This document shows positions 29,003 to 56,119 of a stretch of DNA of 64,000 bases, piece by piece. The position numbers and the translations under genes were made by a program. Below the pieces are notes generated by a model, which was not told the DNA's origin, searched no databases, and worked only from the letters and a program-made list of their open reading frames with translations. Position 1 is the first letter of the stretch. The number at the start of each line of letters is the position of its first letter. The DNA is taken from NCBI GenBank assembly GCA_050273025.1, contig CP158635.1, positions 10,230,001-10,294,000 of the forward strand. Direction: 5' to 3'. Source of the DNA: Cenococcum geophilum. Lineage: Eukaryota.

Positions 29003-32000
29003 TCAATGAAGTGAAACCGAGGACAGCAATGACAACACCGAGGTATGCCACGACATCCGGTTCACTCCCTTTTGTATTTGATACATCTCTTTAAAGGCCG
29101 AGTCGCGCGCGCGTAGGCGCGCGGGACTGTCAAATTCCACGAGCCGGCCCTGATCTAGCATCGCGACTGCGTCAAAGTCGGTGATGGTGTCGAGGCGATG
29201 TGCGGCCGCGATGATGGTGTAGTCGCTGAACTCGGAGCGGATGAGCTCCTGCATCAAGGCATCGGTTTGGATGTCAACGCTGTAGATATTTTGAATCAGC
29301 ATGAACTCTTTTTTTGGGCCTCATTACGGATGCGCAGTGGGCCAGAAACTTACCTTGCAGTCGCCTCGTCGAGAACGAGAATGGACCCCTTGCGCACAAT
29401 GGCGCGAGCGAGGCACAGCAGCTGGCATTGCCCGTGGCTAAGCATGTCGCTTGTGAGTTGCTTGTCGAGTCCGCCATCCTCGAGGAGATGGCTCAGCTCC
29501 ACCTTGTCAAGCGCGTCGCAGATTTCCTCATCAGGGACATTGTGTAAGGGGTCGACATTATCCCGAATCGTACCGGCGAGCACGTAAGGGTCTTGCGGGA
29601 GCGCAATTAGCCGACTGCGAACTTCTTGCCTTGGGAGCGTTGCGATGTCGACGCCGTCGATGATAATACTGCCGCTCGATAGATCGAGAAGGCGTAATAG
29701 CGCAGATATGAGGCTACTTTTTCCGCTGCCGCTTCGGCCACAAAGGCCAACCTTTGCTCCAGGGGGGATGGTAAAAGAGATATCATCCAGGGTAGGCCGC
29801 GCGGATTTTCTTCAGTAAACATGTTAGCTAACCATGCCATCCGACAACAAACACAAAAAAAGGGCCATACTTATGAGATGCAGAGACATTCCGGAACTCA
29901 ATGGCTCCGTAGCTAGGCCAATGTTCTGGTGGGCTTTGATCTTCACCCGACAGATTTTCTGAGTCAACGGTCGACGTGAAGCTTCGAATTCTTGAAAGGG
30001 CACCCATTGAAGTTTCCAATAAAGTCCAATTTGTGATCAGTTGTTTCAGCATCTGGCTGAATCCCACAAGGTTCACGAGCGCCAGGCCAGTCAAGCCTGG
30101 GTCCGTTTCCCCCTTGGTCTTCACAGCTATCGTGACGAGAATGATAGCTATGGTTCCCACTATGAGATCTAAGACCAGGTTTAACCATCTCTGAACACAA
30201 TACAGCAAATAGAAGGGCTTCTGCGACCTCCGAAGCGCTACCAGGAACCGGGAGAGATGTTGGTTCTCCCATTGAAAGGCGCGGATCGTGACAAGACCGC
30301 TCAGGAGCTCGAGGAAATGCGTGAAGAGATATGACTTGGTCTCAATGTCTAGAATTCTGAGACGTCGAGAGGTGCGTAAGTAGAATTTTTGGACCATGTA
30401 GACGACTGCGATGCTGAATGGCAGCGCTGCGGCGATATACTTTGCCGACGCCATGAGAACGAGGAGCTGTGCAAAAAGCACAAATGCCACTTGATCAAAA
30501 TCAGCCCGGTCTACATTATGGGAAATAAAATACTGTACGTACTCATAGCAGTGCGAACCAGTGCGACCGGTAGCTCCATATCGATGAGCTCTAGGTCTTG
30601 ACTAAATCTGTTGGTGGTGATACCAGTGTCTGTGGAAGCAAAGAATGACATGGGGGCACTGGCAGAGAAGAGTTAGCTTGAAAAGGATCATGATCTGCGA
30701 TAGGAGCCCTACTTCATAACAGTATCGAGCAAACGCTGATGTAGTTTACGCCCTGATTGTGGAACCATTTTCATGATTAGAACCCTTTACACGTCAGCAT
30801 CTTCGGTCTCATTTGTTGTAAACAGGCACTTACCAACAAGCCAGAATAAGTGAAGCAAGTCCCAACGCGGCCAGAAATGTGTAAATAGATAAGTAGTACG
30901 CAACCTTCCTATTCGGGTGCTCACTGTTGTACTGGGCCCACCACTTGACCCAGACATCTAGCATAATTTGTCAGCAATTGCAATGAGGAAGGGAAAGGCA
31001 CACGCACTTGGAAACGCCGTTCCAAAGCCATATAGACTGCAGAAAAAGGTAAAGATGATCCAGCGTTTCCACCCGAAAGTCCGAATATAGTACCCATAGA
31101 TAGTCAGGTCCCCTACCGCAGTTTCCTCTTCTAACGAGCTGGAACTCTTTGAAGAAACAAGCGATGCTTTAAATCCTTTTAATGTACTCTTGGTATCGTC
31201 TCGCCTGTATATCGAACGGCCGGTCAAGGATAAGCTACTAACGTAGCCACCGAGCTGGTACAATTCGTCAAAAGTGCCTTGTTCTGCGATGTTTCCGTCA
31301 TGGCTAAGAGCAATAACGTGGTCTGCCTGCGAAAGGCGATGTACTTAAACGGAGGTTAAAGAGGGAACTATATGTCAGGAATGAAGAACATACCTGCGTT
31401 GGTAACTAAGATCACAGTCGTGTCTACACCTCTCAACAGACCCTGATCGCCGAGAACTGATTCAAATATATGCTCTTCGGTCGAGGCATCTAAGCCACTA
31501 AACGCATCATCGATCATGACTATGCTCTTACGAAAGTATATTGCTCTCGCTACTGCCTGTTTCCGTCCTGTCAGAAATGAACAACCTTCCTGATTATAAG
31601 AGACCTACGACACGCTGTTGCTGTCCACCTGAAAGGCTAAGGCCTTTGCTTCCGACGATAGTATCATCTCCAAGCGGCAGTTGTGCGAGGTCTGTCTCCA
31701 GATCGCAAGCTTGGATGACTGTGTTGTACCACTTCGGGTCGTATTCTGCATCGTGAATAATATTTTCTTTCAGAGTTCCGTTCACAAGCCACGGAGTCTG
31801 ACTGCAATAGGCTACTTCGGTCATGAATGATCGGTACAAGCCCTGGGTAGCTGGCGTCTCTCCCAGGAGGGCCTTTAGTAGTGTCGACTTGCCACTGCTT
31901 ACCGGTCCAACGATCATGGTAAGACTGCCCTCCTTGATCTTGAAGTTGAGATTTTGGAGAACCGTGGGCTTCTCCGTATCCCATCCACAGCTAGCGTTCT

Positions 32001-34138
32001 CGGCCACGATGCAGTCTCTTTCGAGGTGCGAAAGCGTAACATCGTCTCCTATCTCGATCTCATCAAATCCCACATGCTTCTCATTCTGAAGCGGTGTTTC
32101 CTCTGGGATATCTGCAAGCTCGGGTTGCTGCGACGGATTAAGTGAATGTAGTTCGTCCGAAGGGGTTTCTTTCTTGACCTCAGTGATGAGATATATGCGA
32201 ATGCGCTCAAAACAACCCAGGGCTGTGATAAGCCCTGAGAGTGATGTAATGAAGAAGGCCACCGGTTCAAGGAGAAGATTCATTAGAACCAGAGATGTGA
32301 GGGCTCTTTCTGTGTCCAAGTTCGGGTACCCTTTATATTTTGCTAACATAATGTACGATCCTAAGGCAACGACAGGGCTCAAAGATGTGCTTGCAAATGC
32401 TGGGCTCAAAATTAGTCTCAATGAAGAGTAGGAAGAGATGAACTTACAAAATGTGGTTATTTTCACTAATAAAGCGCGAAACGTTTCGGCGGTCTGGATT
32501 TCATTCTCACGGAGAGTCGTGATTCTCGATGCCAGATGAGGCGTGAGACCAGTCATCTTTATCCCTTTCATTGCTCCTAGCATAGAAGCCGTGGCATCAA
32601 TTCGGGTCTGGATTCGATCGAGCCAGGTCTTTTGTGAATTTACCAGTTTAGGAGATAGGCCGATTGCTGCGAAAGTACATCCTACGGATTCTGTTAATGG
32701 GTGGGTGGAGAGAGGATGGGCTTTGACTGACCAAATATGACTACCAGCGGTGTCAACGCCGCCCAGCTTAGTTGTATATAGAGCAGCCATATAGACAAAG
32801 CTATTTCGAAAAAGCTTGCCCATAACTCATGGACTTGGCGGAGTCCAGTCGTTATCCGTTCGACGTCTGCGTTCATCAGGGTCACCGCTTCCGACTCCTT
32901 TAGCGCGGAAGAGCTAAGGGTCAGAGTTTTTCGATAGAGAAGGGCCACAAGTGTGCCTCGAAGTTTCGCAATACTTCGATAGGTTCTATGTTGGTGCAGA
33001 GCACCAGATAGCTGTTTAATAGTTAGCGAGCGTAGCGACTGAAAGAGGCCGATTCACTTACCGCAAAGCCACAGTATACGAGAACATACGCAGCAATGAG
33101 GCCGTAGCCAACTGCCTGGCGGTTTTCATAGTCGTTCTTGGTTAAGTAACTGAGTACACGTTGCAGGAGAAACGGCTGGCTGAAATTAAACCCGGTCGCG
33201 CATAACCTTGGTATGATGGCGGATGCAAAACTTCGCCCATGGTGTTTCGCCGCAACCATGAACAAGCTGTTTGGCCGTGGTTGATTTGGTGCTAATTTAG
33301 TTAGTGAAGCTAGTCAGGATGTGGAAATCACCATTACATACACTTCTCCCACTTTTCGTACAGAGCAAGTAGCTCTTGCTCTCCAATAAGCGATGACTGT
33401 ACCTCAAAGAGTGAATTCTCTTGTAGAGGTGTTTTATACCCTCTGAGTAGTAAGGGGTTCAGCCACCAGAAGACCAATCTGTTGAAGAATCCACTCGTAG
33501 CCTCCGGTGCGCTGAACTCTTCTTTAGCAATCAACATCTCTCGTTTCTCTTTCAGTTCTAAAACAAGGAGGCTGCTCTTAATCACAGTAGCTATCAGGAG
33601 TATGATACCCAGTGGTCGGGCGTCGTCCGTCGCAAAAAGTGTTCGAACTCGAGCGGCATGAAAAACAATAGAAACGGTGAGGTAAATGCCAATAGTTGAC
33701 GACGGCCGGGCGTTTCTATAATGCTCGAAATAGGACACCAGCGCAAGCATGAATGTCGCGATGAGGTCTACGACCACGCATGCAATTGCTGCTCTCGTTT
33801 TCACGGTGTCTGGCATGGACATGGCCCCTAAGGACAGGAGTTGAACCCCCCCATAGAGAGCGTAGCAAGACTAAAACGAAGTTAATAATGGTGAAAGACG
33901 CATATATTAGTATTTTCATTCTTACCTGTTTCGAGATATGCCATAGTCGCCCTTCAACTTTGATGCTAGCCTTGTACAATCTAATTAATCGGAGTATAAG
34001 GACAGGGAAAACGATCGTGAATGGTATTATCGAAAGGATAATTTCTTCAAAGAACAAAGTAAAGTCAAATCCACCATAACACCATGGGTTCGAAGGGCCG
34101 AAGCCCTTCTGGGTATCAATTGAACACCTGAGCGGCAT
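29003..34138 (-). CDS. ABCC/MRP-type full-size ABC transporter (TMD0-TMD1-NBD1-TMD2-NBD2), multi-exon
   Basis: N-terminal C..D..FGP...C..GFDFTLFFEE motif. NBD1 has GPVSSGKST and LSGGQQQRV; NBD2 has GRSGSGKSS, LSHGQCQLLCLARA and ILVLDEATA. GT-AG introns are present (first 33925-33871). Not every internal exon boundary was verified. Confidence 0.93.
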
Positions 34139-34716
34139 GTTAACGAAAGACTAAGAAAATTGCATTCAGAGAGGAAAAGAATGGAAAAGGAGATGTAGTC
34201 CCCACGATGGATTTCGGATTGCAGTTGCCTACAACGCAGGCGATATCACTGTTATCACGGGGGTCCGACATGATTCAGAAGCTCTAAGCCAGCTTGCTGC
34301 GCAGTCTAAGCAACGCCCGCAGTCATTCACGAGGTGTACAAGCAAAATTAGAAGTAGGTCATAGCGAGCATTCCGTTCCGTCAGATTGGAGATGTTCGAG
34401 AAACATCTGACAGGAAGATTTGACCCAGTTAGAGGACGACATGGATCCGACCTTAGCGATGTTATATTTTCGCAAGTCTCACTAAGATGGGGCTCTAGCG
34501 ATTATTTTTAAAATAAACGTTAAGCTTACATGTTGTGCATTTAGCGCTGTGCAGACCCCAGCTGCGCCCTGGCCCTGCACCACGCTCCTGGGCCCGCCCG
34601 GAAGCTAAGAGATGCGAAGCTAGTCGCCGATCACGGATAGCTTGCAGAAACTAACGATAATCATTTTGATCGCCACGTGGCGCAACCGTCAGCCCTGAGA
34701 TAATTACCGTGCTATA

Positions 34717-34853
34717 CACCCTCCTGTCAATTCCAGTTGTTAGCGCAGCCACGTCTGCACGGCCTTTTTGTAGGGGAAGTTTGGGTATTTTTGCTGTTTA
34801 AGTAAGGCCGTGCAGATGTGGCTGCGCTAACAACCGGAATTGACAGGAGGGTG
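34717..34853. mobile_element. 137-bp MITE (Tc1/mariner-type), copy 1, upstream of the ABC transporter
   Basis: ~50-bp TIRs (CACCCTCCTGTCAATTCC...GGAATTGACAGGAGGGTG) with TA on both sides; near identical to 44655-44791. Confidence 0.92.
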
Positions 34854-35481
34854 TACACCACCTTGGCGCATCCGGTTGAAAGCGCGTGTTGATCGGGCAG
34901 ATCAAACTACGTGGATTTATACCCCAAAATACGTTAAAATACGTCGAAATGGTCGTGCTTATTACTTTAAAGGTATAAAATTGTGCCGTTTGATCAGCGC
35001 GATCAACAAGTGCTTATGCGCCAAGATGGTGTATGTACAGTACGTCAATGCTTGCAGCAGGGAGTCGATCTGCCGGCTTTCCCTTTATCAGGATGAAACC
35101 TGGCTAGGTTGTGCGTATATTCTGGCACGACTTGCCTCATCGAAACGTCAGGCCGCGCCTTTACAATTGTACCCGTCGATCTGGAGAACTCGTGTATTGA
35201 TTGATCTATGAAAGAAAAGAGACTATATATACATGATGTCGGTGCAGGACCAGCGGGGGGGTACGTAATAGGGAGTAGGTGATCGAGTCAAGCAGGGGTA
35301 GGTGACTGAGTCGAGGGGTAGGTAGTTGATTTAGGTCGACAGTACCATAATATTTTCTTACACGTAGTAATCAGAAAATAGTTCAGAAACGGATAATTTT
35401 TTAATAGAAGCTAAAATACACTAAAATACACAAGCAGATCTTAATTAGGTAACAGTATTTCTTAAGATATCCTAGGATATC

Positions 35482-37374: not shown

Positions 37375-38542
37375 AATGAAAGAATGGGGTGAAACAGTGA
37401 AGGGAACTGAACTGTAAAGACGGGGATTCAGTGAGGAAACGTCTTCATTCTCTGGCCGTTCCAATATATACGAGCCCTCATCTTGAATGTAACTAAATAC
37501 AGTCCCGGGCCGCCAACTACTTACTCAACCAACCGCTCACTCAACCGGCCAAGCTGCGGTCTTGCAATTAGCTCATACCTGGGCGGTGATCTGAGCGCAG
37601 CTCTGCAAGGTCGCATCATGATCTTGGAGACTGAGATAGAAGCATTAGCTTATTTTTGGCCTGATACCTGGGCGTGCAATCCTGCTAACACTCTCCCCTG
37701 CAGCAGAAATCTCGTTTTCGGAACAGGTGGCGACCTATTGGCGTATGAACATTTGCTGCGGCGTTTCTAAATCGGGTAATTCACATGCAAAGCAAGGTTG
37801 TCAAAGATAACCATAATTCAAAATGCATTGTTGGGTCAGACGTGTGTAGAACTTCAGGACTAATTCGGCCATAGACCGTATTGGACACGAGAAGCCGCTC
37901 CTGTGCTGTGAATATAATCAAATAATGTAACGTAAGCACGGCAGCTATATGCCGGGTGAACCTTTGGATCTGCCAGAGCCACGGTGAGCTCGGTCAGCTT
38001 GGGTTGAAGCATCGACTAGGCACTGTGCACTACCCTGGCAGTGCAATGCCGCCACGTGCGGGCTGAATGTTCCACGTGTGACGTGCATAGGCGAGTTATC
38101 GGCCCGCCGTTTGTCCTATTAATTCCCCGAACTGCGGCTGAAATCTAAGTCAGCACGCCCTGAAATAACACCAAAAGCGGAATAAAGTGCTGAAACGCTG
38201 AGCCTTGGCCGGTTGTGGCGGATTATGTACTTCCCGTCGGAGTTAGCGCGATCAAGACTTCTCAAATTTAGCGAGCTTGGTGCCTGGCAGCACCCGGCGG
38301 TGCAAAACCCGGTCAATGAGTTCATTCGGATCAGATGTTTATTTCGTGACTTATATCTTCAGTTTATTTCTGTGATCATCATCAATCTTTGTCTCCCGTA
38401 GTCCTCAGTCCCTCTTTCAAATCGCCCCTCTCTTAAATCGTCCCTCGCTCAATTAAATTATTGCATACTTATCTCAGCCGTCTGTCCCGCACTCTAGCAT
38501 CAGATAACGCGTCCGGAGCAATTGCTTCGAGCCAAGTCAAAG

Positions 38543-41500
38543 ATGGAGGCTTACCAAAGCGTATCGAAACAACAAGAACTATGTCATGTTCTGCTCATAG
38601 AACTTCTCGCGTTCGTCTCTCAATCAACCGTGTTCCAATAACCACTGACGATTACATTTTTACAGACACCAATTCTGTTCAGCAGTGCGATGGTACGTTA
38701 GCAAGCCTCTCATTCATATCCGACTTGTGATCTGATCCGATTCCAGGACCGAGACTCAGGACTTGCTGCTATCCGAGTTCCAGACGAAAAAGACTGTGGA
38801 GATCGGTCCGTCGGAGACGCTGACAAATATGATGAAAAGAACGCGCGATCTCGTTTACCGTCCTTTTGATACTGCGAACTCCATTTCGAGGGATTTTCTC
38901 TCGCTCAAGCGGAATAAGCAGGATATTTATTTCGCTGCGCCGCGGGGAGAGCCGGCGGTGACGGCGGTTACGTCAGTCAGCGCGACACCCCCAGCTGCGC
39001 CACACCAACTAGCAGTACAACCGACAGTGGAAGCCCTCCCACCATCAACAACCCCTGCGCCTATCACTGCAGGTCCTGTTGAAGACGCTCCAGTATCTGC
39101 TGCGGATGTGATTAGGACCATTGTTGCCATCGCCTTGAAGAAGAGTGCGAAGGATGTCTCTTTTGACAGCTCGGTCAAGGCCCTTTCTGGAGGTTAGCCT
39201 CAACTTTTAGTTTCCCCCTCCTATTCATGATTCGGACGACTGACATTTAAGTAGGACGGTCTACCTTGCAAAATGAGATCACCGGTGACCTGGACGCCGA
39301 GTTCGGGTCTGCGCCTGATGGTGCAGAGGAGATCCCGCTGAAGGAGCTTGCTGCTATGCTACAAAAGACCTTTTCTGGCCAGTTGGGACGACGTACAAAG
39401 TCTCTGGTAGACAAGTTCTTCACGTCTAAGATGCCTGGAGGTTTCAATCTGACCAAAGTTCGAGATATGCTCGAGCAAGAATACGGATTCGCTGCCGGGA
39501 GACAAGATTCTATTCTCTTGTTCTCCCTTCAGACGCAACCGGCAGCCCGCTTTGATTCGGAAGAAGAGGCAAAAGGATATTGGTCCAGTATTGTTCAGAC
39601 ATACATTGCTACGACCGGCATTGAGATCCGAAAGTCGGCCACAATGTCTAGCACTGCCGTTGCCGGTGCCCGCATCGATCCTAAGGCGCTCGATGCTTTG
39701 AACAAACGCTCCAACGACTTTCATCGAGACGTTTATCAGGCCTATGCGAAGCATCTCGGTGAAAACTCTGGTTCTGGTTCCGAAGAGGTGGTGAAATTGC
39801 GGAGCGATTTGCATCACATGCAGGCCGAACTTGACCTATGGAATCTCGAGCACGGCAACGAGTATGCGAGAGGCATCAAGCCGTTTTTTGATCGCCGGAA
39901 AGCTCGTCTATTCGACTCTTTTTGGAACTGGGCTTTACAAGACCTTTTCTTGATCTACCACGGAATTCGCCAAGGCACCCTTAGACTCCAAGATGAAGAT
40001 CTTGCTCGGCGCCGACGTGCACTTGTGAATCGGTCGTGCCAGAGATTGGTTCTCGTTCTTTCCCACATGTTGGTGGAAATCAAGACGCAGAAGCCGCAGT
40101 CCGCCGACATGGAGGACTGGTTCGCGGAGCTGCTTGTGGACTGTAAGGCCGCTCTCAAACAACCACCAGCGTATATCGGATCGAGCAAACCCACAGCACC
40201 ACGGACTACCATTGATGCCAATGGATCTATAACATTCGTTGAAGAGCCGTGCGCCCATCCCCCTGTCCGGACCTTTGAACCGAACGCCTTCGAAGCCGCA
40301 CTTGTTGCCAAGGAATCCAAAAACAGTGTCAGAATTATTAATCAACCGTTCCTGAACGCCCCCCCTACCCCCGCTATGACCCCCGACCTTACCCCCGCTT
40401 TGACCCCTGCCATGACCCCTGCCATGACCCCCAGTAAAACGCCTAACTTCGACGCATCATCCATTCCAGAAGTGCCTGGTGTTCACAGCAGATACTGCCC
40501 CCAAATTCAGCAAAAGTCGGGAGGAACATGGAAAGACTCCAGGACCTTGACCGATGAATACGTTAATGTCCTTGATAGTGCAGTCTCGGCAGGTTTGGCG
40601 TTCCAGGGGAAGAATGTGCTGCTCACAGGTACCGGCAAAGGTTCTATTGGCTCTAAAATCTTGCAAGGCCTTCTCTCTGGAGGGGCTAAAGTCATCGTTA
40701 CAACGAGCTCATACTCAAAGACCACCAGGTACTACCAAAACATGTATTCCAAATTTGGATCCAAAGGGTCGAGTTTGTTGGTTGTGCCCTTCAATCAAGG
40801 CAGCCAGCAAGACACGGAATCACTCATCGAATATATCTACAGCATTGGCGACGCGGAATGGGATCTAGACCATGTCATTCCATTTGCAGCAATTTCGGAA
40901 CACACCAATGGCCTCGAGATTGATTCGAATTCAGAACTAGCCCATCGCATGATGCTCACCAACACTCTACGACTGCTTGGGGCTATAAAGAGAGCGAAAG
41001 AGAGCCGTCGAATTTCTACCAGGCCCGCCCAAGTTATTCTGCCTTTGTCCCCTAATCATGGTGTTTTTGGAAATGACGGACTCTACGCAGAGTCGAAATT
41101 GGGCCTTGAAGGGCTTCTGAACAAGTGGCATACAGAAGATTGGCCTGAATACCTATCCGTCTGCGGCGCAATAATTGGATGGACGCGCGGAACGAAGTTG
41201 ATGAATGATAACGATATCGTAGCCGAGGGTGTTGAATTGTTGGGCATCAAAACATTCTCGCAAGACGAAATGGCCGTGAACATCCTCGGTTTGATGACTT
41301 CGCCCTTACTCGAAACTTCACAAACTGAGCCGCTCCTCGCTGATCTGAGTGGGGGCATGAGCTCGTTCCCGAATTTAAAGGAAGATGTCGCAAATATCCG
41401 AAGCGAGATTTCCGAAATCAGCTCGAGTCGGCGTGCTCTTGCTCGTGAACAGCGAGCCGAATATGGTATCCCCAGCACAATCTCGGGATCCAACACGTTC

Positions 41501-43750: not shown

Positions 43751-44654
43751 ATTTAGGGTACGATCATTTGTTTTGGGAGTAAGGTTTAGATTTTAAATCA
43801 GCATGTTTAGGCGTTGCTAGGGTAGAGTGTCATCTGTTATACTATTCCCGTGTAGATATGTAGATATGTAGATACTTTAAAATGTTGCTTTTAGGTTAAT
43901 TTTAAAATGTATTATTTCAGCCCCATTAATATCTTTTCCCTCATAGTGAACGTGCAGCTATCGCTCGGACCTCAGAAGTATTACGCATGCCTCACACTAT
44001 GCCTGAGTAATTTTCATCACGCCTGGGGTAGATTTGAAACTGAACCCGTATCTAGCAAACAAATGTACAGTAAATGCACAAATTCATTTTTGAATTGAAG
44101 AAGTCCAGGTCTGGTTAGTTTGATAAGTCGGATCACAGGATCACAGCAAAGGGAGTCTAAGGTAACTCGACAAAAAATGTCATACTCTAATTTATTGAAG
44201 ATTTTTGTCAACATTGGAGGAGAGTGCAAGAGCTAAGAAATATTTCTATGCATTTATCTGCACTGTTTGCTCAATATCGGATCTCGGGAGCTGAGGGGAG
44301 GAGATGAAGTTTCGAGAAGCATTCAAAAGGCATTTGAAGAACCGATAGGCTCTCCCCTCAAACACTGGGATAGGTTTGTAAAAAGATCGTCCACGTCAGA
44401 CCTACTTTCTCACTGCCCAGGTCGCTAGGGATCCAATGGAACCAAGGCTAAAAATTCCCTGGCCACTCAGACCTCTCAGACCTCTCGGGTCTTTCTGCGG
44501 TAATTGTTATTCTTAGGCTTAAACCTTTAATAACCTCTAAACGTTAGGCGGAGTCTGGTTAGGCGGAGTCCAACGGCCCAATCACGTTGAAGCCCCATCC
44601 CACTTGAGGCTAGTGGTGGTCACACAGCCCTGTCGCTCAGCCTTTGCCCTTGTA

Positions 44655-44791
44655 CACCCTCCTGTCAATCCCGGTTGTTAGCGCAGCCACGTCTGCACGG
44701 CCTTTTTGTAGGGGAAGTTTGGGTATTTTTGCTGTTTAAGTAAGGCCGTGCAGATGTGGCTGCGCTAACAACCGGAATTGACTGGAGGGTG
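44655..44791. mobile_element. 137-bp MITE, copy 2, upstream of FAS beta
   Basis: Same TIRs, length, orientation and TA flanks as 34717-34853, differing by only a few substitutions. Confidence 0.92.
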
Positions 44792-45108
44792 TACATACAA
44801 TATTATCGAGCTATTTCACTATGCACACCCATGCAAGCCTGCTCCTCAGCCCGGTAATGTAATAAAACACGTAATATTACCAACCGAGAAGACCAAGGCT
44901 GGTAGCACCGCCGCCATGAAACATCCTGTTATAGCACGTCAGCAGCCCTACATATGACCGAAATGATTTGCTTAGAAGGCCCGGAGGCGCTGCAAAAGCA
45001 CCTTTTATCTATAGAATTGCAATTCGCTCATTTCCCCTCTCAGCCTTCTTGCACACTTGTTGCGTTTTGCACTTCGCTCCAACGTTCTTTCCTTCCTTAC
45101 TTACAATA

Positions 45109-48100
45109 ATGGATGCGCCTGCATTTTCTCTACAGCGCGCTCCTGACGACATCAACATCGCAGCATCCAACGAGTCTTTAGTTGAGTGTTTTCACAACGG
45201 CTGTATTTTCCAGTTAGCCATGCCCGATCATTTGAAGGAGTTTGCGGTTCGAGTGCGAAACGATTTCCTTACCTGTTTTGCCCAGAAGACAATCCAAGAG
45301 CCATGTTCAGACTTACAGTTTCTGGTACAATTTTTGAGATATATTGCGGGCCGAGAAGATGCGGCAACGGCTATGACTTCAGAGGTTTTTTCGAAAGTGG
45401 TAGAAAAGCTAGGAAATGAGCATTTACGGGGCAAGGACATTCACACGCGGGCAGCTGAACTATCAGCCGACTCGGGATTATCCAGCAAGCAAGAAGTCAT
45501 TAGATCGTACTACGAAGCCATGTATCTCATGGGACGGGGTGCTGGAAGTCGAGTACCGCAACTTTTTGCAACATCTCATCCGTCCGAGCAAAGACCCATC
45601 TTCACAGTGTTTGGCGGCCAAGGGAACACTCAGCACTACTTCGAAGAATTCAGAGATCTGTACGCGACATACGGCCGCTTACTTGACGATATTCTGGACT
45701 ATGCATCCATCATATTTGACCAACTGCTTTGTGACGAGACAACAATCAATCAGTACCCGAATGGTATGGATTTCTTTACTTGGCTGAGGAAACCAGACTC
45801 AACGCCGGAGCAAGAATACTTGCTATCCGCCCCCGTGAGCTTTCCATTGATCGCACTAGGCCAGCTGACCAGCTTTTACGTCACCTGCAAGATCTGGCAG
45901 CTTACCCCAGGCGAGGTTGTCGATAAATTGCACGGATCAACGGGCCACAGTCAAGGAATTATCGTGGCAGCAGGGATTGCTACGTGTAAGACCTGGGACG
46001 ATTTCGAAGGCGCATTCAGATCATGTTTAATAGCTCTTTTCTACACGGGTTGTCGCAGCCAACAACAATTTCCCAGGAAGACATCGTGGCAAAAGATGGT
46101 TCAGGGCCCAGTGTCCAGCTCGGAAGACGAACCTTCACCCATGATGAATATCATGCTTCTCTCTCAAGCGGATGTAGAGCTGCAAATTCATTCATTCAAT
46201 CGACATCTTCCAGAAGACCAGCAAATAGCTATCGCACTCGTAAATGGACCACATAATATCGTTGTCGGTGGCCCACCGGAGTCATTGCGGAGTTTCAACT
46301 CGTGGCTTCAAAAGCTCCAAAAGCCTCAGGCGAACGGAGAGCAGTATAAATGGAAATCGTTTACGACACGCTACCTTCCGATCTCTGCGCCATTCCATAC
46401 CTTCTATCTCGCGGATACCAAGTCCATCATTGTGAATGATATGGAACGACACAACATTATGATCAAACCTAGCGACCTGCTTATTCCCGTGTATGACAGC
46501 AGAACGGGTCGAGACCTAAGAGAAGTGGAAGAAGAAGCCCTGTTTCCGATACTCACAAACGCAATCACGACCGAAATGGTTGATTGGCCACGTGCTACTA
46601 TGTTCCCGAATCGCAGTTGCATCATTGATTTCGGGCCGGGTGAGACGTCAGGGGTCGGCATCCTTCTACATCGTACGAAAGAGGGAACAGGAACTCGAGT
46701 TATCCTAGCCGGGCCGCTTCAGGGTGCACTACCGCATGTGGGCTACAAGCCCGATTTATTCGAATCGCCATCTCCAACTTCTACCCAAAGATCTACTGAT
46801 TGGTTGCGGGACTTTGCGCCAACTCTGCTCTCCGACGCATCAGGGAGGACTATGGTCAGCACAAAGATGAGCCAGCTGTTGGGGGTTCCACCACTGATGG
46901 TCGCGGGAATGACCCCGACTACGGTTCATCCCGATTTTGTCGCCGCTGTCATCAACGCAGGCTATCACGTCGAATTAGCCGCCGGAGGATATCATCGCGA
47001 AGAATCACTAGTCCAGGCTATCAAATCCATCGAAAGATCGATCCCGGCCGGCAAAGGGATCACAATAAACTTGATATACTCCGCGCCACGATCTATACAA
47101 TGGCAGATACCTTTAGTCAAAGATCTTATCGAAAAGGGTCACTTGATTGATGGTATTACATTGGGCGCCGGAGTGCCCTCGCTAGAAGTTGCCACCGGCT
47201 ATATTGAGGATCTTGGTCTGAAGCACATTTCTTTCAAACCAGGGTCTGTGGAGGCAATCAAACAGGTCATTGTGCTTGCAAAGGCGCACCCCGGCTTCCC
47301 GATTTTGCTGCAATGGACAGGGGGGCGAGGAGGGGGGCATCATTCTACCGAAGACTTTCATGAGCCAATACTGCAGACATATGCTAGCATAAGAAGATGT
47401 CCTAACATTATCTTAGTTGCTGGCAGTGGTTTTGGTGGTGTCGATGATACGTACCCTTATCTGACTGGATCCTGGTCAGAGAAGTTCGGTCAACCTTGTA
47501 TGCCCTTCGATGGCTGCCTCTTCGGGAGCCGCATGATGATTGCAAAAGAGGCACACACTTCTCTGGCAGCCAAACAGGCTATTTCCTCGACGGAAGGGGT
47601 CGAAGACGCGTTTTGGCAGTCTAGCAAAGGTATAATTACGGTTAAGTCAGAGATGGGCCAACCAATTCACAAGATTGCCACTCGTGGGGTCCAATTGTGG
47701 GCTGAGATGGACCGCAAAATCTTTTCGCTCGACAAAAGCAAGCAGCTTATCGAAATCAACCGTCAACGCAGCTACATCATCGAACGTCTTAACAAGGATT
47801 TTCAAAAGGTCTGGTTTGGTTACGATTTCGCCAGTGGAAAACCTGTAGAACTCAAAGACATGTCTTATGCGGACGTTGCGAGGCGTATGCTGGAATTGCT
47901 TTACATTAAGAGGGGATCGCAGTGGATTGATCCATCCTATGTCACGCTCTTCGGGGATTTTATCCGACGTATCGAAGAAAGATTGCCACTCTCCAACTCA
48001 GAGCTGTCACAACCGATTTTTTCGAGTTACGCCGACTTTAACGATCCATTTGAGGCATTACGCAACCTCGCTCAAGCATACCGAGGAAGCCAGGTGCAGC

Positions 48101-51100
48101 TCGTCAATCAGGAGGACCAGGAGTATTTCCTGTCAATTTGTCGACGATCGGGCCAGAAGCCAGTCCCATTTATACCCGTTTTGGACGAGAATTTCGAGAC
48201 TTGGTTCAAGAAAGATTCCTTATGGCAGTCCGAATTCGTGGAAGCTGTGGTAGATGAAGACGTACAACGCACGTGCATTCTCCAAGGCCCCGTCGCTGTT
48301 TCCTACGCTACGCCAGAAAATATCAATGAACCTGTCAGAGTTATCTTGGACCGGATTAATGACGGCCATGTTCAAAAAATCCTCCGTGATTCCTATGGTG
48401 GCCAACCAGAAACAGTTCCTTTTGTCGAGTTTTTTGGCCACCATGCTTCAGAATCTACCGCATGTCAAGATAATATCCAAATTACTACAGGACCAAGCTC
48501 TGCGACTTATAGTATACCCTCAGACATCGAAGACCTTCCACCATCAGAGGCGTGGTTCAATCTTCTAGCCGGGAACAAGCTCTCGTGGAGATATGCCGTC
48601 TTCAGAAGCTTAACAGTCATGAATGGAAACCAGATGGTTCCGAACCCCATCCGTCAAGCATTTGCTCCAGCTCAGGGGTGTTCTGTCACGATCACGGATA
48701 AGTTACGCCACAACTACGTCTCTATCACCATGAGCAACAATATCTCTAGCAAAACTGATATTTCAATTGCCACCGAGCCGGGAAATAAGATCATCCTCCG
48801 CATGTTCTGCTACGACAACGCATTGAACGAGCCTCTACCTCTGGAGTTTCGATTTTCCTATCACCCAGAGTCCCCTCATTCATTACTACACGAAGGTATT
48901 GAGGGCCGTGATGAGCGTATTTGCAACTTCTATCGGAAACTCTGGATCGGCAAATCCTACAAGACTCCGTTGCCAGCTGGGAAGCTAACCTACAAGACCA
49001 ACGGGGGAGAAATGGTCATCAGGCAGGGTCTCGTTGAAAAGTTTTTGCAAACAATTGGCGGCGGCATGAGAAACATGGACCGAGATGGCTTGGTCCCCAT
49101 GGATTTCGCTATCGTGGTTGGTTGGAAAGCTATCATGAAAGCCCTTTTGCTCGTTCAAGGGGATCTTTTGAAGCTAGTTCACTTATCCAACAAGTTTCGC
49201 ATGTATCCGGGCGCCCGTCCTTTAAGAGTTGAGGAAAAAGCCGAGAGTTTTGCGAGGACGACCGCCGTCACAATTCAAGACTCTGGAAAGGTCGTCGAAA
49301 TATGTTGCACAATCAGTAGAGACCGCGTTCCAGTTATGGATGTCATATCTCAATTTCTCTACCGTGGGACGTATAGCGACTACTCGGAGTCGTTCCAAGC
49401 ATTCAACGAAGATACTAGACAAATCGAGTTCAGCTCACCAAGTCAGGCGAGTCTCTTGATATCGAAAGAGTGGATAACGTTCCACCATCCGGTTACACCA
49501 GAAACTCTCTGTGATAAAACACTCGCTTTCGAGCTCGAGACTTTCTCTGCGCTGAAGTCGAGATCGTTGCACAGTCGCATACGAACAGTTGGCAAAGTGT
49601 TCGCGAATTCGCCGTCGGCGAGAGATCCTATCGAAATTGGCACGGTACACTACGATTCACTTGCCTCCCCAACTCCAACACTCGTGGACAACCCAGTTAT
49701 AGGTTACCTCGAACGTCATGGGAAGGTTGTTCAACAACGAGTGATGCTGGAGAGTCCAACCTCCCTCAATCATGGGGATGAAGGCTTTGTTTTTGCCGCA
49801 CCAAACAGCAACTCCGAATATTCTCGGATTTCGCAGGACTACAACCCTATTCACATCTCACCCGCCTTCGCTCGATACGCTGGGCTTCCAGGCCCTATAA
49901 CGCATGGTATGCATACTAGCGCAATCATTCGTAGCATATGCGAAATGCGTTGCGCAGAAGGGAACCTGAACGCTATGAGAACCTTTAGTGCTTCATTTAG
50001 CGGTATGATCCAAGCAGGAGATAAAATTGAGGTCCATCTGGCGCAAATAGCCATGGTTGAAGGGCGCAGAGTCATTTCGATTGAAGCACGGAATGTTGCT
50101 ACGTCGGAGAAAGTCTTTGTGGGAGAGTGCGAGATCGAACAAACAGAGACCGCCTATATCTTTACTGGGCAAGGCAGCCAAGAAGTCAACATGGGGATGG
50201 ACTTGTACGAAACAAGTGCGGTTGCGAAGCAAGTTTGGGACCGAGCTGACAAGCACTTTGACGAGACATACGGTATAAGCTACGAAATCCTCAATGGTTT
50301 GGAGAGGAGCTAACGCCTGCGCTAGGTTTCCGCATTACCGACATCGTCAAAAAGAATCCAAAGCAGCTCACGATACATTTCGGTGGAAGACGAGGGGCTG
50401 CAATACGCCAGAACTACCTCAATATGACCTACGACTCTTACGATACAGCCGGTAACAAAACAACTAAACGCTTCTTCGACATCCATGAACGTAGTCCTTC
50501 GTACACTTATCGGCATCCGAAGGGGTTGTTGTTCTCTACGGAGTTTGCACAGCCCGCACTCACGGTGATGGAGAAAGCAGCTTTCGAAGACATGAACTCT
50601 AAAGGACTTATTTCCGAGGGCAGTAAATATGCTGGACACTCCCTTGGAGAATATGCTGCACTGGGCGCAATTGCCAATATAATGCCTCTGGAGCAAATCC
50701 TCTCCATTGTGTTCTACCGCGGCCTGTCGATGCAAGTGGCTGTCGAGCGTGACGAAGAGGGGAGGTCAGACTTTGGAATGATGGCCGTCGATCCTAGTCG
50801 AGTTACTAAGTGTAAGCAAAATCGCGTGTATCAGGGATCTCATGGTTAATTTCTAACCTTTTTGCAGCATTTGGAATCGGGGAGCTTGAGTCTACAGTCT
50901 CTACGATTAGCCGGGGGACAAACTCACTTCTCGAGATTGTCAACTACAATGTTTCCCAGCGACAATACGTGTGTGCTGGAACATTGCGTAACCTTCAAAT
51001 CCTTACCGATGTCCTCAACGAACTTGCCATGATATCAAATCCGACTGTTTCAGACCCTATGGATGACCTCATCAAGAGGCACGTAGCTCGCAATAGCTCT

Positions 51101-51391
51101 CAATCAAATCCAGTGACCTCCCTTGAACGGGGCAAAGCAACAGTTCCTCTCGCCGGAATTGACGTCCCCTTCCACTCCAGTTTTCTACGTCCCAACCTTG
51201 CAGCATTCCGCGAAGTCCTGGAGCAGAATATTCAACCGTCGTGGATGGATCCCGACAAACTTATTGGGAGATACATCCCGAATGTGACTGCGAGACCCTT
51301 TGATATTACGAAGGAAGCATTTGAATACGCGTGGGAAGTTACCAAGTCAGACCGTTTAAGAAAAGTTTTGGATAGTTGGCAGGAGGTTTAG
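45109..51391 (+). CDS. Fungal fatty acid synthase beta subunit (AT-ER-DH-MPT)
   Basis: AT motifs FGGQGN and GHSQG; ER motifs VAGMTPTT and QWTGGRGGGHHS; DH motif DYNPIH; MPT motifs FTGQGSQ, GHSLGEY and GIDVPFHS. Introns are 50273-50325 and 50812-50867. The first in-frame ATG is at 45109. Confidence 0.95.
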
Positions 51392-52229
51392 TGTGGGGGT
51401 CAAATCTGCTCTCCAGTAGGCGGCGTTTTATGGGTCGGTTATGGCGCATATATAAATATTTTACGATGTATACTAGCCAGTGATATAATCACATTGTCTC
51501 GATTTTGGTAGATAGACAGTGAATTTGATTCTCATGTTAATATCTCTCCCGTCTTGAAAATTACATGTGTAACTCCTACGAGGCCTCACTAAAACTCCTT
51601 CCCTCCGCGCCTTCAACCGAAAATGGGTAGTCAAAGTCCCATGATTCCCAGTTCTGTGAGTCGTGGCGACATCAGCAACAACTCGCCGCTTACGTGAGAG
51701 CGCAGCCGGCAGGCGCAGCCGCCTGTACAAACTTCACCAAGCCACGAAACGATTAATTACCGTAAACACGTTTCCGCCATTCCTGTCTCCCTCACCGCTT
51801 CAATAATTTTCTTTGCACGCCCCTGTGTAATACGATAATTTACGAGTCAAAATCCTAGGCCGCAAAGCCAGCTAGATCCAACAGACTAAGAGCGGGAATC
51901 CTACAAAGCTTAGCTAGAAAATTGGTAAGCTGAGTAAGTTCTGTGACCGCAGCGGGACGTACCTTTTTTCCAATTGATTGCTAGAAGACAGCTACCTTAG
52001 CTGCGGCTTGGGTCCATGGTATTGCTAAGATTAGAATTTTGTCCATTAATACTCTTTCGGGCAGTTGGGCCACGACCAAAAATAATCCTTAACATTTGAA
52101 GCTTCTACTTTTTATTTCGCTTCTTTCCTTCAGCATCTAATATAAAGTGTCGCCTGTAAAATTTTACAATTCCTAGCATATTCTTCTTGAAATCTTCGAA
52201 TCAATAAGCAGCGAATAGGAACCAGCAAA

Positions 52230-53613
52230 ATGTTTCCACCGTCTCCACTTGAGTCCATCGGTGAGTACTTTCCTCCACCCTTCAGTCTTGATGGTTTCCC
52301 TTCTTTATTCAAATCACGGTCTATACAACATACTAATTGGGTCACTATTGCTGTTTAGACTGGAACCGTCTTGGCATAGCAATTCAAGACAGTGGTAAGT
52401 GCATCCGATCCAACGCTATTTGATACAAACATTTTAACTGATGGTACCTCGAGTCAACGGTCACGTGGAGTCAACATATAAGGTTTCGACTGGGGAGTGG
52501 AGCGCTCCAAAATTTGTTCAAGACCCGTACATACGGGTTCACGGCCTTGCACCTGCTCTTAATTATGGTACGTCACGCACTCTAGTTTTGTTCTGCCCAG
52601 TGTGGAAGTCTGTTCTTGCGCCGTCAAAGTTGCTTACTCAAAAATCAGGGCAACAAGCATACGAAGGACTTAAGGCGCACCGCTCGCCTTCAGGAGACAT
52701 TCTCCTCTTTCGTCCGACGGCCCACGCCAACCGTCTTAGTCACAGCGCAAGCTACGTCTCAATTCCTCCAGTGCCAGCGGAGCATTTCTTGAAATGCGTC
52801 AAGCTCGCCGTGGGGAGGAATGCGGAGTGGGTAGCTCCTCACACAACTGAGGCTTTGCTATACATCCGCCCACTCGTTTTCGGAAGCAGTGGTCACCTCG
52901 CGCTGACCGCGCCGACCGAATTCACCTTCGCCGTCTACGTGCAGCCCGGAACGACGTACCACGGTGTGCAGCCTCTTCCCGCCGTGGTGATTGAGGAGTT
53001 CGACCGCGCAGCACCGCGCGGCACTGGCGGCGCTAAGGTTGGAGGCAATTATGCTCCTGTGATCCGCTGGACCGACAAGGCGCGGAGCGAGGGCTTCGCG
53101 GTAACTCTGCATCTGGACGCTCAGACGCGGACGTGCGTTGAAGAATTCTCGACCAGCGGGTTCATCGGGATCAAGAAGGATGGAGAGGCTGTAACAGTCG
53201 TGGTGCCGGACAGCAAGAACATCGTCGAGAGCATCACTTCCGACAGCTGCCTGGCGCTGGCGGAGTCTTTCAATTGGAAGGTTGAGCGGCGGGAAATTCC
53301 CTGGAGTGAGTGCAAGTCCTTTGGCGAAGTTATTGCTGTGGGAACTGCGGCATCGTTGTTGCCCATCAGATCGCTCTCGAGGCCAGGAACGGGGGAGACG
53401 TTTGTTTACGGCGACAAGACCGGCGAGTGCACTCTTAAGCTTGGAACAGCGCTCAGGAACATTATGAAGGGGAAGACAGAGGACCAATTTGGTTGGACAT
53501 CACAGGTCCGGGAGAGTGATCTGCTGCTGGACAACGTCGCTGCTGAAGTAGCCAATGGCGACACTGCCAATGGTGTCAACGACGAGCTCGAACATGCCAA
53601 TGGCTCAGAGTAG
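52230..53613 (+). CDS. Branched-chain amino acid aminotransferase-like enzyme (PLP fold type IV)
   Basis: Spliced start MFPPSPLESIDWNRLG...VNGHVE; motifs LNYGQQAYEGLKA, LYIRP, AKVGGNYAP (PLP lysine), EEFST and SITSDS. Introns are 52261-52358, 52395-52453 and 52568-52648. Confidence 0.93.
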
Positions 53614-54317
53614 GTTGACGGGACTGAGAAATCCAACGGCGCTGGTTAGGTTAGAATAGCTGTGTAATTTACATTAAGGTCTCCAATAATTATACACCCC
53701 CCAAACGATACACGGCCACCCCATCTCATTGGTTTAACTCATCCTCAGTGTTTTTATCAGTATTCGATACTGATTACACTTATTGAAATATTGAATATTG
53801 ACATTCAATATTCAACACCAATATAAAATGTTCAATACTGAAAGTTATTGAATATTGAATATTTTTGGAATTGAGGTAGTAGAAATACGGCCTAGAGGCT
53901 CGGTAAATGACTCTTAAGTCTCTTAATAATACCTGCTTATTTTAAATTTATTAGGTAACCCCATATAAAGTTAAAATTACTAAATATTAAACCTGGGTTT
54001 ACAAGTCATCGCACATAGTATCTTTAAATTTTGCACCCCTATACTTTCTCCACCTTTGTAATCAACACCATGCCTTCCTTACCTTTTAGTATTACTAAGT
54101 GTTTTTAGGGAGCCGTTGAACAATTACATGGGACCGTATAAAGCTTGGAAGTCTAAATATTAAACGTACGGAGTGCTTACAGAGTTGGTTAAGAAGCCAT
54201 ATTACCGCCGGCGGTAGACTTATAGCTGTGGACGTAGTAGCTGAGACTCTTGAGCGTACACGACTCTTAAGCAATTAAATACAACACCAAGCCAAATCAC
54301 TACGCTGACGATATTGG

Positions 54318-55933: not shown

Positions 55934-56119
55934 GATATTGGTGGGAGATTGGTCGAATTTTAAAGCTCCGCAGAGCCCAATTTTTATATGCTAAGGCTCT
56001 ATATATTAGATTCAATAATCAATAATTAATATTCAATATATTTTTAGTATGAGTCAGCGATTTAATATAAATATCAATACGACCTTATATTGATGTTGAA
56101 TATTGATAAAAACACAGAG

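Follow-up and report, generated by a model that had tools for sequence, protein, structure and literature searches.

Does a fungal locus that combines a fatty acid synthase (FAS) pair, a cytochrome P450, a BCAT-like aminotransferase and an ABC pump, with no NRPS beside it, make a product of its own, or does it supply a building block for a peptide assembled elsewhere? Such a locus lies in a 64,000-nucleotide stretch of Cenococcum geophilum DNA, the whole of which is referred to below as the window.

Five intact genes in an island between degraded repeats

Gene content was determined by Pfam searches of long reading frames followed by exon models, none of which has internal stops. Window positions 29003-53613 hold five intact genes in one cluster, uncharacterised so far:

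29003..34138, minus strand: MRP-type ABCC transporter gene (TMD0-TMD1-NBD1-TMD2-NBD2), 14 exons, 1479 aa
35482..37374, minus strand: cytochrome P450 gene, 5 exons, 557 aa, modelled against P0244
38829..43750, plus strand: FAS alpha gene (ACP-KR-KS), exons 38829-39192 and 39255-43750, 1619 aa
45109..51391, plus strand: FAS beta gene (AT-ER-DH-MPT), exons 45109-50272, 50326-50811 and 50868-51391, 2057 aa
52230..53613, plus strand: class IV (BCAT-like) aminotransferase gene, 4 exons, 381 aa

The initial annotation had called all five genes intact. This was confirmed by their Pfam domains, by the presence of catalytic motifs and by models free of both stops and frameshifts.

The island has no RIP signature and is set between RIP-degraded retrotransposon blocks. 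Its GC content is 0.45-0.50, versus 0.30-0.40 in the flanks. TpA/ApT was 1.45-2.05 in 1-28000 and 56001-64000 versus 0.46-1.05 in 28001-56000, and (CpA+TpG)/(ApC+GpT) was 0.28-0.79 versus 1.05-1.38 in the same regions; DNA at 54-56 kb of the window is not RIP-like. The repeats are as follows:

1..28191, unstranded: left flank, RIP-degraded repeats, from RIP indices and repeat cover
about 4052-6502, minus strand: Gypsy/Ty3 pol relic with RVT_1, RNase H, integrase and SH3_Tf2-1 matches, stops read as X
34715..34857, unstranded: copy 1 of a 145-nt palindromic MITE-like repeat, in the ABCC-P450 spacer
44653..44795, unstranded: copy 2 of the same 145-nt repeat, in the spacer between FAS alpha and FAS beta
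53756..64000, unstranded: right flank, inverted-repeat elements, then RIP-degraded repeats from about 56 kb
53756-53859/55153-55255 and 54838-54919/56026-56107, unstranded: right-flank inverted repeats, from self-comparison of the window

Transposon relics had been placed within 130-260 bp of the genes on both sides. This held on the right, where an inverted-repeat element begins at 53756, 143 bp beyond the aminotransferase stop. It did not hold on the left, where AT-rich DNA (GC 0.30-0.37) adjoins the ABCC stop and the closest repeat copy that could be recognised ends 812 bp away, at 28191. The two MITE-like copies are 98% identical and self-complementary, and the word depth of the repeat in RNA contigs was very high (768/189/196).

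As had been proposed, no other gene was found in the flanks (29 kb on the left, 10 kb on the right); the single ORF of at least 150 aa outside the island (2730-3200) had no Pfam match. Pfam read-through of 1-14402 gave the Gypsy pol relic and nothing else, and neither read-through of 19201-22802 nor a six-frame search of 53641-58802 found any family. The other flank parts (14403-19200, 22803-29002 and 58803-64000) are largely intra-window repeat copies. None of 15 small ORFs in the spacers and near right flank had a Pfam match above the curated cut-off. The absence of an NRPS beside the cluster was likewise borne out for the island and the Pfam-scanned flank parts, in which no AMP-binding or Condensation domain was found, intact or degraded.

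Expression and selection

In the four enzyme genes, each of the 10 coding introns was confirmed with 0 mismatches in RNA contigs of runs X1, X9 and X2, from three studies. The cluster stretch is carried by 18 of the 24 listed sequencing runs (8 of them RNA on record; 14 studies), and fungal as well as root metatranscriptomes contain cluster transcripts. The evidence leaves out runs X20-X24 (share 0.00-0.04), and RNA depth was not used to rank genes. In comparison with the 96%-identical relative L001, whose compared genes have no stops, dN/dS was 0.127 for FAS alpha, 0.146 for P450, 0.150 for FAS beta and 0.255 for ABCC. These four genes, the ones comparable with L001, are under purifying selection.

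We consider it very improbable that the cluster is a decaying, functionless relic stranded among transposons. RIP-degraded repeats do surround it, MITE-like insertions sit in two of its spacers, and ABCC is scarcely expressed. However, the genes are uninterrupted, the island has normal RIP indices, and dN/dS of 0.13-0.26 together with stop-free genes in L001 argues against decay; for the four enzyme genes, the spliced transcripts from several studies contradict it.

The FAS pair is distinct from primary FAS

Pfam matches in FAS alpha (plus strand, 38736-43750) were Fas_alpha_ACP, FAS_I_H, adh_short and ketoacyl-synt N/C. The protein is 100% identical to P0122 and has the KS motif ACAT; its coding intron appeared as a joint in 3 runs, along with two 5′UTR introns. 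FAS beta (plus strand, 44935-51391) matched FAS_N, SAT, Fas1-AflB-like_hel, FAS_meander, MaoC, Acyl_transf_1, NMO-like and FAS1_DH_region and has the active-site motifs GHSQG/GHSLG. Both of its introns were found in RNA contigs, and its transcript spans about 44935-51499. By domains, motifs and alignment to solved FAS, the two subunits form a fungal split type I FAS.

FAS alpha gave no Pfam match to PF01648 (PPT), and the protein stops after the KS at 1619 aa. Among the 120 FAS alpha matches listed, PF01648 was found in 0 of the 39 best (P0122-P0160) versus 80 of the 81 others. Identity of FAS alpha to primary FAS2 is about 50%. In the FAS alpha tree, a branch with SH-aLRT 100 separated 23 PPT-less rows from 17 primary rows. 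Both types occur side by side in each of four fungi; the primary copies are P0208 in Glonium, P0176 in Lophiotrema, P0184 in Amniculicola and P0172 in Sclerophora. In domain architecture the pair looks like fungal FAS in general, as it would if this were the primary fatty acid synthase with its neighbours there by chance. We give that explanation practically no credence in view of the missing PPT domain, the low identity to FAS2, the separate and fully supported clade, the relatives that own both FAS types and the conservation of the neighbouring genes. These findings agree with the earlier claim of a dedicated, non-primary FAS, and on domain content and phylogeny the pair is a dedicated paralogue.

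Residues at chain-length positions

In yeast FAS, M1251 gates the KS channel, and the G1250S-M1251W double mutation moved the product to C6/C8; I306A was described as widening the acetyl channel of the AT (PMC5353594). The position of M1251, located by alignment, is Phe in the window FAS alpha. Over the 120 FAS alpha matches listed, the 39 PPT-less proteins carry F (35), Y (2) or L (2) there, and the 81 others carry I (70), L (5), M (3) or V (2), with one in which the position was not found; one solved primary FAS has Val. This clade-wide Phe/Tyr gate, versus Ile/Leu/Met/Val in primary enzymes, is newly noticed here. G1250 (GSGFGG) and the Phe at the F1279 position are kept in the window protein. 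In FAS beta, the I306 position of the AT is Thr in 4/4 cluster proteins (window, L001, L003 and L004) versus Ile in 5/5 solved primary FAS1 compared, and MPT R1834 is unchanged.

The engineered yeast enzyme combines a bulky KS gate with a smaller residue at AT 306, changes that shift its product to C6-C8; in the cluster FAS, Phe and Thr occupy the two corresponding sites without engineering. The cluster enzyme differs from the engineered form, which has Trp at M1251 and Ser at G1250, in having Phe and Gly. The Phe/Tyr gate and the AT Thr thus point to a short or medium chain as the product of the cluster FAS, on residue evidence that is correlative. HexA/HexB and StcJ/StcK of the aflatoxin and sterigmatocystin pathways are likewise a dedicated fungal FAS alpha/beta pair; the short chain that they make in secondary metabolism goes to a PKS. 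None of these four names occurs among the 120 FAS alpha matches listed. Gajewski et al. found KS position F1279 using the aflatoxin/sterigmatocystin hexanoate FAS (PMC5353594); unlike the F1279 site traced there, the departure in the window FAS is at the M1251 position, and the F1279 Phe is retained. PMC12286595 deals with plant thioesterases only.

Aminotransferase, P450 and transporter

The aminotransferase gave a Pfam match to Aminotran_4 (PF01063) with E 8e-26 (plus strand, 52438-53613). Its PLP lysine lies in GGAKVGGNY, and this motif and the conserved Glu motif EEFSTS both align with solved BCATs 7lv7 and 4dqn, which places it among fold-type IV PLP aminotransferases. All 3 introns were present in RNA contigs of three runs, and the transcript starts from about 51744. 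In the tree, a 26-row clade (support 100) was separate from another of 80 rows, in which the grouping follows taxonomy. The proposed dedication of this BCAT-like enzyme to the module was upheld in that it belongs to a separate paralogue clade. Matches P0065 ("TOXF") and P0109 ("apf4") have 54-59% identity under names that are automatic only; the nearest outgroup of the clade includes P0065 (59%). In Lophium and Glonium, FAS alpha and P450 orthologues are present, and no cluster-type aminotransferase occurs among the 120 matches listed.

The P450 matched Pfam p450 with E 4.5e-41 (minus strand, 35482-36585) and has all signature motifs: heme FSVGPRSCIG, EXXR (EAMR) and I-helix AGADT. Each of its 4 introns shows up as a joint in contigs from RNA runs X1, X9 and X2. 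Its closest named relatives bear generic automatic names, and an ESM Atlas search with the Zopfia P450 returned generic P450 clusters only. A further transcript was found upstream:

37510..38584, minus strand: spliced transcript upstream of P450, intron 38482-38554, 973-nt contig in X9

Its CT..AC joint occurs in X1, X9 and X2, and the ORFs within it had no Pfam match; the transcript is either a long P450 5′UTR or a separate non-coding unit.

ABCC (minus strand, 29003-34150) gave Pfam matches to two ABC_tran domains, ABC_membrane and TMD0_ABC, the last scoring below the curated cut-off (23.5 vs 27 bits). Over residues 1-1431 the protein is colinear with full-length ABCC proteins P0367 and P0374 (1468 and 1547 aa); it has a TMD0, two TMDs, two NBDs and two Walker A motifs, as expected of the ABCC type. 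Its introns come from spliced dynamic-programming alignment to P0367 and P0374 only and are not RNA-verified. ABCC was nearly silent in X1, X9 and X2, with word depth of about 1-2x at the 5′ end. This near-silence in runs that express the other four genes makes a role as dedicated exporter less convincing.

Conservation of the unit

Seven relative loci came from one metagenome scan; none extends past the cluster on an informative side, although the contigs that carry L001 and L003 run on further. Order and orientation were as in the window for P450-FAS alpha-FAS beta-aminotransferase in L003, ABCC-P450-FAS alpha in L005 and FAS alpha-FAS beta in L004. Identity in relatives with matching gene order is 54-81%. 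Consecutive GenBank accessions fit the cluster order in the Dothideomycetes Zopfia, Paraphoma, Glonium and Pleosporales sp. We therefore rejected the view that the five genes are a transposon-made fragment of a larger lipopeptide cluster; the suggestion that transposon blocks had fragmented a sub-cluster fails on the same recurrence of order and orientation in L003, L005, L004 and the four named fungi. Since the gene order is shared with relatives, the unit is ancestral, and transposons merely isolate the cluster here. On this comparison of loci, the cluster is old and ancestral in Dothideomycetes.

A candidate pathway and its alternatives

FAS subunits are clustered here with a BCAT-like aminotransferase and a P450, as is characteristic of the TOX2, aps/apf and atn modules; the NRPS that those modules have in the same locus was not found in the scanned window parts. 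The initial annotation had matched the FAS, P450 and BCAT-like trio to the published 2-amino-fatty-acid route, and the trio does fit the proposals in PMC4109984, PMC3729494 and PMC8262921. By this analogy, the cluster probably makes a medium-chain 2-amino fatty acid. In the pathway that we infer, in its chain length, site of P450 oxidation, 2-amino product and end-product status alike, the dedicated PPT-less FAS pair with its aromatic KS gate would build a fatty acyl chain of short or medium length. The P450 would oxidise this chain at C-2, as in published proposals, to give a 2-oxo acid, which the cytosolic BCAT-like class IV aminotransferase would convert to the 2-amino fatty acid; the ABCC pump would export the product or protect the cell. 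C-2 oxidation by a P450 of this type is so far a published proposal. Our preferred reading, to which we give somewhat less than an even chance, is that the five genes are a self-contained secondary-metabolite cluster, ancestral in Dothideomycetes, with the 2-amino fatty acid as end product.

The cluster may instead be a sub-cluster whose 2-amino fatty acid goes to an NRPS encoded elsewhere, with ABCC exporting the final peptide. Every characterised FAS plus BCAT-like module in the same three papers supplies an NRPS, split pathways exist (HC-toxin genes are loosely clustered and the apicidin cluster has no FAS beta; PMC3729494), and the TOXF-named P0065 lies in the aminotransferase outgroup. 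We nevertheless regard this explanation as rather doubtful: the scanned window parts contain neither an NRPS nor an NRPS relic, and the five genes travel together in distant relatives with no gene between; an NRPS member would have to lie outside the unit everywhere. A different chemistry appears improbable. Under it, the BCAT-like enzyme would be catabolic, providing a branched starter for the FAS, or would aminate another 2-oxo site; with the chain hydroxylated by the P450, the pathway would end in an oxidised (branched) fatty acid or lipid instead of a 2-amino fatty acid. P450s of the cluster type usually hydroxylate unactivated carbons, which counts in its favour, as does the lack of a dehydrogenase for a hydroxy-to-oxo step in the cluster. 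The Thr at the I306 position of the starter-loading AT in all four cluster FAS beta proteins also fits, given the widened channel described for I306A (PMC5353594). However, a branched starter needs a keto-acid decarboxylase or dehydrogenase, neither of which is in the cluster, and published clustered FAS and BCAT-like genes indicate amination of the FAS product.

Relation to known systems

The likeness of the window cluster to the apicidin, HC-toxin and aspercryptin modules is one of gene types. The aspercryptin (atn) cluster of Aspergillus nidulans has FAS, P450 and transporter genes. Here as there, BCAT paralogues appear recruited to a secondary-metabolite cluster; atn is NRPS-based, and its AtnH/BatC and AtnJ/BatD are presumed makers of 2-aminocaprylic, 2-aminodecanoic and 2-aminododecanoic acid (PMC8262921). 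For apicidin F, the proposed route runs from octanoate to 2-oxooctanoate by a P450 and on to 2-aminooctanoate by Apf4 (PMC4109984). That Fusarium cluster also groups a FAS subunit (Apf5, alpha), P450s (Apf7/Apf8) and a BCAT-like enzyme (Apf4). It has in addition the NRPS Apf1, a transcription factor, an MFS transporter and more tailoring genes, and it has no FAS beta. Unlike it, the window cluster has both FAS subunits and an ABCC pump and has no NRPS or regulator. For HC-toxin, PMC3729494 credits TOXC (FAS beta), TOXH (FAS alpha) and TOXF with the presumed synthesis and amination of Aeo's decanoate backbone. The TOX2 locus of Cochliobolus carbonum and Alternaria jesenskae thus shares with the window the dedicated FAS alpha and beta and the BCAT-like aminotransferase. 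TOX2 also has the NRPS HTS1, the MFS transporter TOXA, TOXE and TOXG; PMC3729494 describes it as loose and repeat-rich and mentions no P450. It is confined to few species, whereas the window cluster is compact and widespread in Dothideomycetes.

The FAS, P450 and BCAT-like module is otherwise known only as an NRPS supplier, for histone-deacetylase-inhibiting cyclic peptides and lipopeptides. In this cluster it is compact and joined by an ABC pump of its own, and the unit is conserved throughout a fungal class. A literature search, in which few subscription papers were reachable, turned up no publication describing this cluster or any FAS/P450/BCAT/ABC cluster free of an NRPS. With this cluster, the fungal route to 2-amino fatty acids, so far only proposed in print, could be studied in a clean setting, and a family of secreted lipo-amino acids not yet recognised may come to light. 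Its Phe/Tyr KS gate is a natural chain-length experiment that bears on engineered medium-chain fatty acid production. More broadly, Dothideomycetes might share an NRPS-independent pathway whose secreted product is a medium-chain 2-amino fatty acid in free form, or something closely derived from it, made by a natural short-chain FAS that is gated by Phe in place of Ile or Met. We hold this wider proposal to be speculative and on the whole unlikely; if true, small lipo-amino acids with a conserved ecological role would stand as a new class of fungal metabolite, and the enzyme would serve as a natural template for setting chain length in fungal FAS. The Dothideomycete carriers belong to ectomycorrhizal, plant-pathogenic, aquatic, marine and lichen-associated lineages.

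Gene models and transcription

In this fungal window, Pfam searches of long open frames gave exactly the five genes described in the initial annotation. None of the five models contained an internal stop, and catalytic motifs were in place.

Features of the cluster
29003-34138, minus strand, ABCC pump: 14 exons, 1479 aa, spliced alignment model
35482-37374, minus strand, P450: 5 exons, 557 aa
37510-38584, minus strand, spliced transcript: intron 38482-38554 (CT..AC), occupying most of the P450-FAS alpha spacer
38829-39192 and 39255-43750, plus strand, FAS alpha exons: 1619 aa
45109-50272, 50326-50811 and 50868-51391, plus strand, FAS beta exons: 2057 aa
52230-53613, plus strand, aminotransferase: 4 exons, 381 aa

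The FAS alpha product was letter-for-letter identical to database protein P0122, from a public 5157-nt contig. ABCC was modelled by our own spliced alignment to two full-length ABCC proteins (P0367 and P0374), which concurred on 12 of its 13 introns and disagreed on the second.

A 10-kb probe was present, whole or partially, in 18 of the 24 public sequencing runs listed; these 18 (14 studies) included 14 with at least half of the probe words and 8 recorded as RNA. Four runs were compared with the window over 33400-53399. Contigs of runs X1, X9 and X2 showed no letter other than those of the window and had joints at every coding intron of the four enzyme genes (four in P450, one in FAS alpha, two in FAS beta and three in the aminotransferase), proving the presence of spliced RNA. 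The FAS alpha 5'UTR had two further introns in X2, one of which was also found in X19. The ABCC 5' end (33400-34138) had a word depth of only ~0-2x in X1, X9 and X2, while the other four genes were represented there by full-length spliced contigs. Such a weak signal speaks against tight co-regulation of the exporter; the ABCC pump may be regulated separately.

X19 consists of raw stranded reads that were 95-99% alike to the window, and it therefore represents another strain. Its read strands (FAS alpha and FAS beta on plus, P450 on minus) agreed with the models. Over the aminotransferase (52076-53399), the first mate lay on the plus strand, the reverse of the FAS alpha and FAS beta pattern although all three genes are on the plus strand, suggesting antisense transcription in this strain. 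No joints at the aminotransferase introns were found in X19. The 37510-38584 transcript lies head to head with the FAS alpha 5'UTR, and the ORFs inside it had no Pfam match; the alternatives are a P450 5'UTR of 1.2 kb and a non-coding RNA of its own.

A dedicated FAS and aminotransferase

The phosphopantetheinyl transferase (PPT) domain PF01648 was absent from the best 39 of the 120 FAS alpha matches listed (56-100% identity, ~1420-1675 aa) and present in 80 of the next 81 (~50-52% identity over the full query). The PPT-bearing group includes the primary FAS2 of Glonium, Lophiotrema, Amniculicola and Sclerophora, which also have a PPT-less member. In a 40-row FAS alpha tree, one branch (SH-aLRT 100) set the 17 primary rows apart from the 23 PPT-less ones. 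The window protein paired with Glonium inside a 17-row Dothideomycete clade (support 100) whose branching order looks broadly like the taxonomy. Glonium stellatum was the closest named relative among the matches listed (FAS alpha ~87-88%, P450 exon 93%), and the window probably comes from a fungus of the same family. The initial annotation had named a FAS pair grouping with primary FAS1/FAS2 as a result that would count against its reading; the FAS alpha tree and the PPT absence place it elsewhere, and judged by its sequence the cluster FAS is not the primary FAS.

Two cluster-type FAS alpha proteins encoded on different contigs of Lindgomyces ingoldianus, P0125 (76% identical to the window) and P0145 (69%), occupy separate parts of the clade, which indicates a duplication of the cluster or of its FAS in this species. 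A second PPT-less FAS alpha group (P0148-P0158, 60-62% identity), also with GSGFGG at the KS gate, formed its own clade (4 of 11 members sampled).

The aminotransferase is likewise a dedicated paralogue. In a FastTree analysis of 117 of 121 rows (four rows below 300 aa were left out), it belonged to a 26-row clade (support 100), separate from an 80-row clade tracking taxonomy. It stood beside a Sclerophora protein whose contig also bears the FAS alpha and P450 of that species. Lophium (P0134/P0248) and Glonium (P0123/P0242) had FAS alpha and P450 orthologues and no cluster-type aminotransferase among the 120 matches listed; the best Lophium BCAT, P0033, fell in the large taxonomy-tracking clade. 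This gap could reflect gene loss or an annotation gap.

Conservation of gene order and selection

Three metagenome contigs had the order and orientation of the window, and consecutive GenBank accessions, which we take to mark neighbouring genes, reproduced this order in four named genomes.

Related clusters (genomes: matches listed)
L003: P450 (-), FAS alpha (+), FAS beta (+), aminotransferase (+); 54-74% protein identity
L005: ABCC (-), P450 (-), FAS alpha (+)
L004: FAS alpha, FAS beta
Zopfia rhizophila: P450 KAF2181847, FAS alpha KAF2181848, aminotransferase KAF2181850
Paraphoma chrysanthemicola: P450 KAH7074749, FAS alpha KAH7074748, aminotransferase KAH7074746
Glonium stellatum: P450 OCL09020, FAS alpha OCL09019, aminotransferase not found among matches listed
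Pleosporales sp. CAS-2024a: P450 tag ACEQ8H_002982, FAS alpha absent among matches listed, aminotransferase tag ACEQ8H_002985

Two or three of the FAS alpha, P450 and aminotransferase matches also shared one contig in Aaosphaeria, Dendryphion, Lindgomyces, Amniculicola, Lophium, Lophiotrema, Setomelanomma and Sclerophora. By this comparison the five-gene unit is evidently old. A larger cluster fragmented by transposons had been one of two initial proposals; because the same order and shared contigs recur in relatives, transposons did not carve the set from such a cluster and only isolate it in the window.

Metagenome contig L001 was colinear over 29055-51874 with 96% DNA identity, a span that covers the four genes other than the aminotransferase. 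These four had no stops in L001, and dN/dS was 0.255 for ABCC, 0.146 for P450, 0.127 for FAS alpha and 0.150 for FAS beta; non-coding divergence was 4.7%.

Predicted product

Alignment to solved yeast FAS2 placed Phe of the window FAS alpha at the KS position of yeast M1251, a residue reported to split the KS acyl channel (PMC5353594). The 39 PPT-less proteins had F (35), Y (2) or L (2) at this position; the other 81 proteins listed had I (70), L (5), M (3) or V (2), with one not found. Yeast FAS carrying G1250S-M1251W is reported to make 12-fold more C6 and 56-fold more C8 (PMC5353594). At AT I306, FAS beta had Thr in all four sequences (window, L001, L003 and L004), and Ile occupied this position in all five solved primary FAS1 with alignments shown. 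MPT R1834 and KS F1279 were unchanged in the window. From Phe at the KS gate and Thr at AT I306, we infer by correlation that the FAS product would be a short or medium chain, noting that the gate residue of one solved primary FAS is Val.

The window has the enzyme set named in published proposals. For apicidin F, FAS-made octanoate is proposed to be converted to a 2-oxo acid by a P450 and aminated by the BCAT-like Apf4 (PMC4109984); in HC-toxin, a decanoate backbone made by TOXC/TOXH is described as aminated by TOXF (PMC3729494); and AtnH and AtnJ, BCAT paralogues from a gene cluster of A. nidulans, are presumed makers of 2-amino C8-C12 acids (PMC8262921). In the window, the dedicated FAS would make a short or medium chain, the P450 would convert it to a 2-oxo acid and the BCAT-like enzyme would yield a 2-amino fatty acid.

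We tentatively favour a stand-alone 2-amino-fatty-acid pathway. The same chemistry might instead feed an unlinked NRPS, as in all characterised relatives of the module; this is somewhat unlikely, and no NRPS, intact or degraded, was found by Pfam in the island or, with stops read as X, in 1-14402, 19201-22802 and 53641-58802; the stretches 14403-19200, 22803-29002 and 58803-64000 consist mostly of repeat copies. That the enzymes carry out some other chemistry is doubtful. A primary FAS or a dead relic is, jointly, very improbable; the missing PPT domain, the separate clade and the relatives carrying both types speak against a primary FAS. No paper on this cluster was found in a literature search mostly outside subscription journals. 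This kind of module is already known; what is new is its compact, NRPS-free, ABCC-linked and class-wide form with an aromatic KS gate.

Flanks and repeats

The island (~28-56 kb) has GC 0.43-0.50 and the surrounding AT-rich blocks 0.30-0.40. RIP indices tell the two apart: TpA/ApT was 1.45-2.05 and (CpA+TpG)/(ApC+GpT) 0.28-0.79 in the flanks (1-28000 and 56001-64000), versus 0.46-1.05 and 1.05-1.38 in the island. On the left, 812 bp separate the ABCC stop from the closest recognisable repeat copy, and AT-rich sequence adjoins the gene; on the right, an inverted-repeat element starts 143 bp past the stop codon of the last gene.

Repeat features
~4052-6502, minus strand, Gypsy/Ty3 pol relic: RVT_1, RT_RNaseH, integrase (Integrase_H2C2) and SH3_Tf2-1; many stops, readable only with stops as X
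13456-19414 and 22178-28191, left flank, recurring repeat family containing an SH3_Tf2-1 piece
53756-53859 / 55153-55255 and 54838-54919 / 56026-56107, inverted-repeat pairs: ~82-83% identity, ~1.2-1.4 kb apart
34715-34857 (ABCC-P450 spacer) and 44653-44795 (FAS alpha-FAS beta spacer), MITE-like self-complementary element: ~145 nt, two copies 98% identical

No Pfam family was detected in the six frames of 19201-22802 or of 53641-58802, and none of 15 small ORFs in the spacers and near right flank exceeded Pfam curated cut-offs. The inverted-repeat pairs, possible non-autonomous DNA transposons, lie within a non-RIP-like stretch (54-56 kb, GC 0.43) where six-frame scanning gave no Pfam family. 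RNA-contig word depth in the bins of the MITE-like element (768/189/196 and 161/74/88) was far above that of the genes, with many loose ends, indicating a multi-copy element that is also transcribed from other genomic sites.
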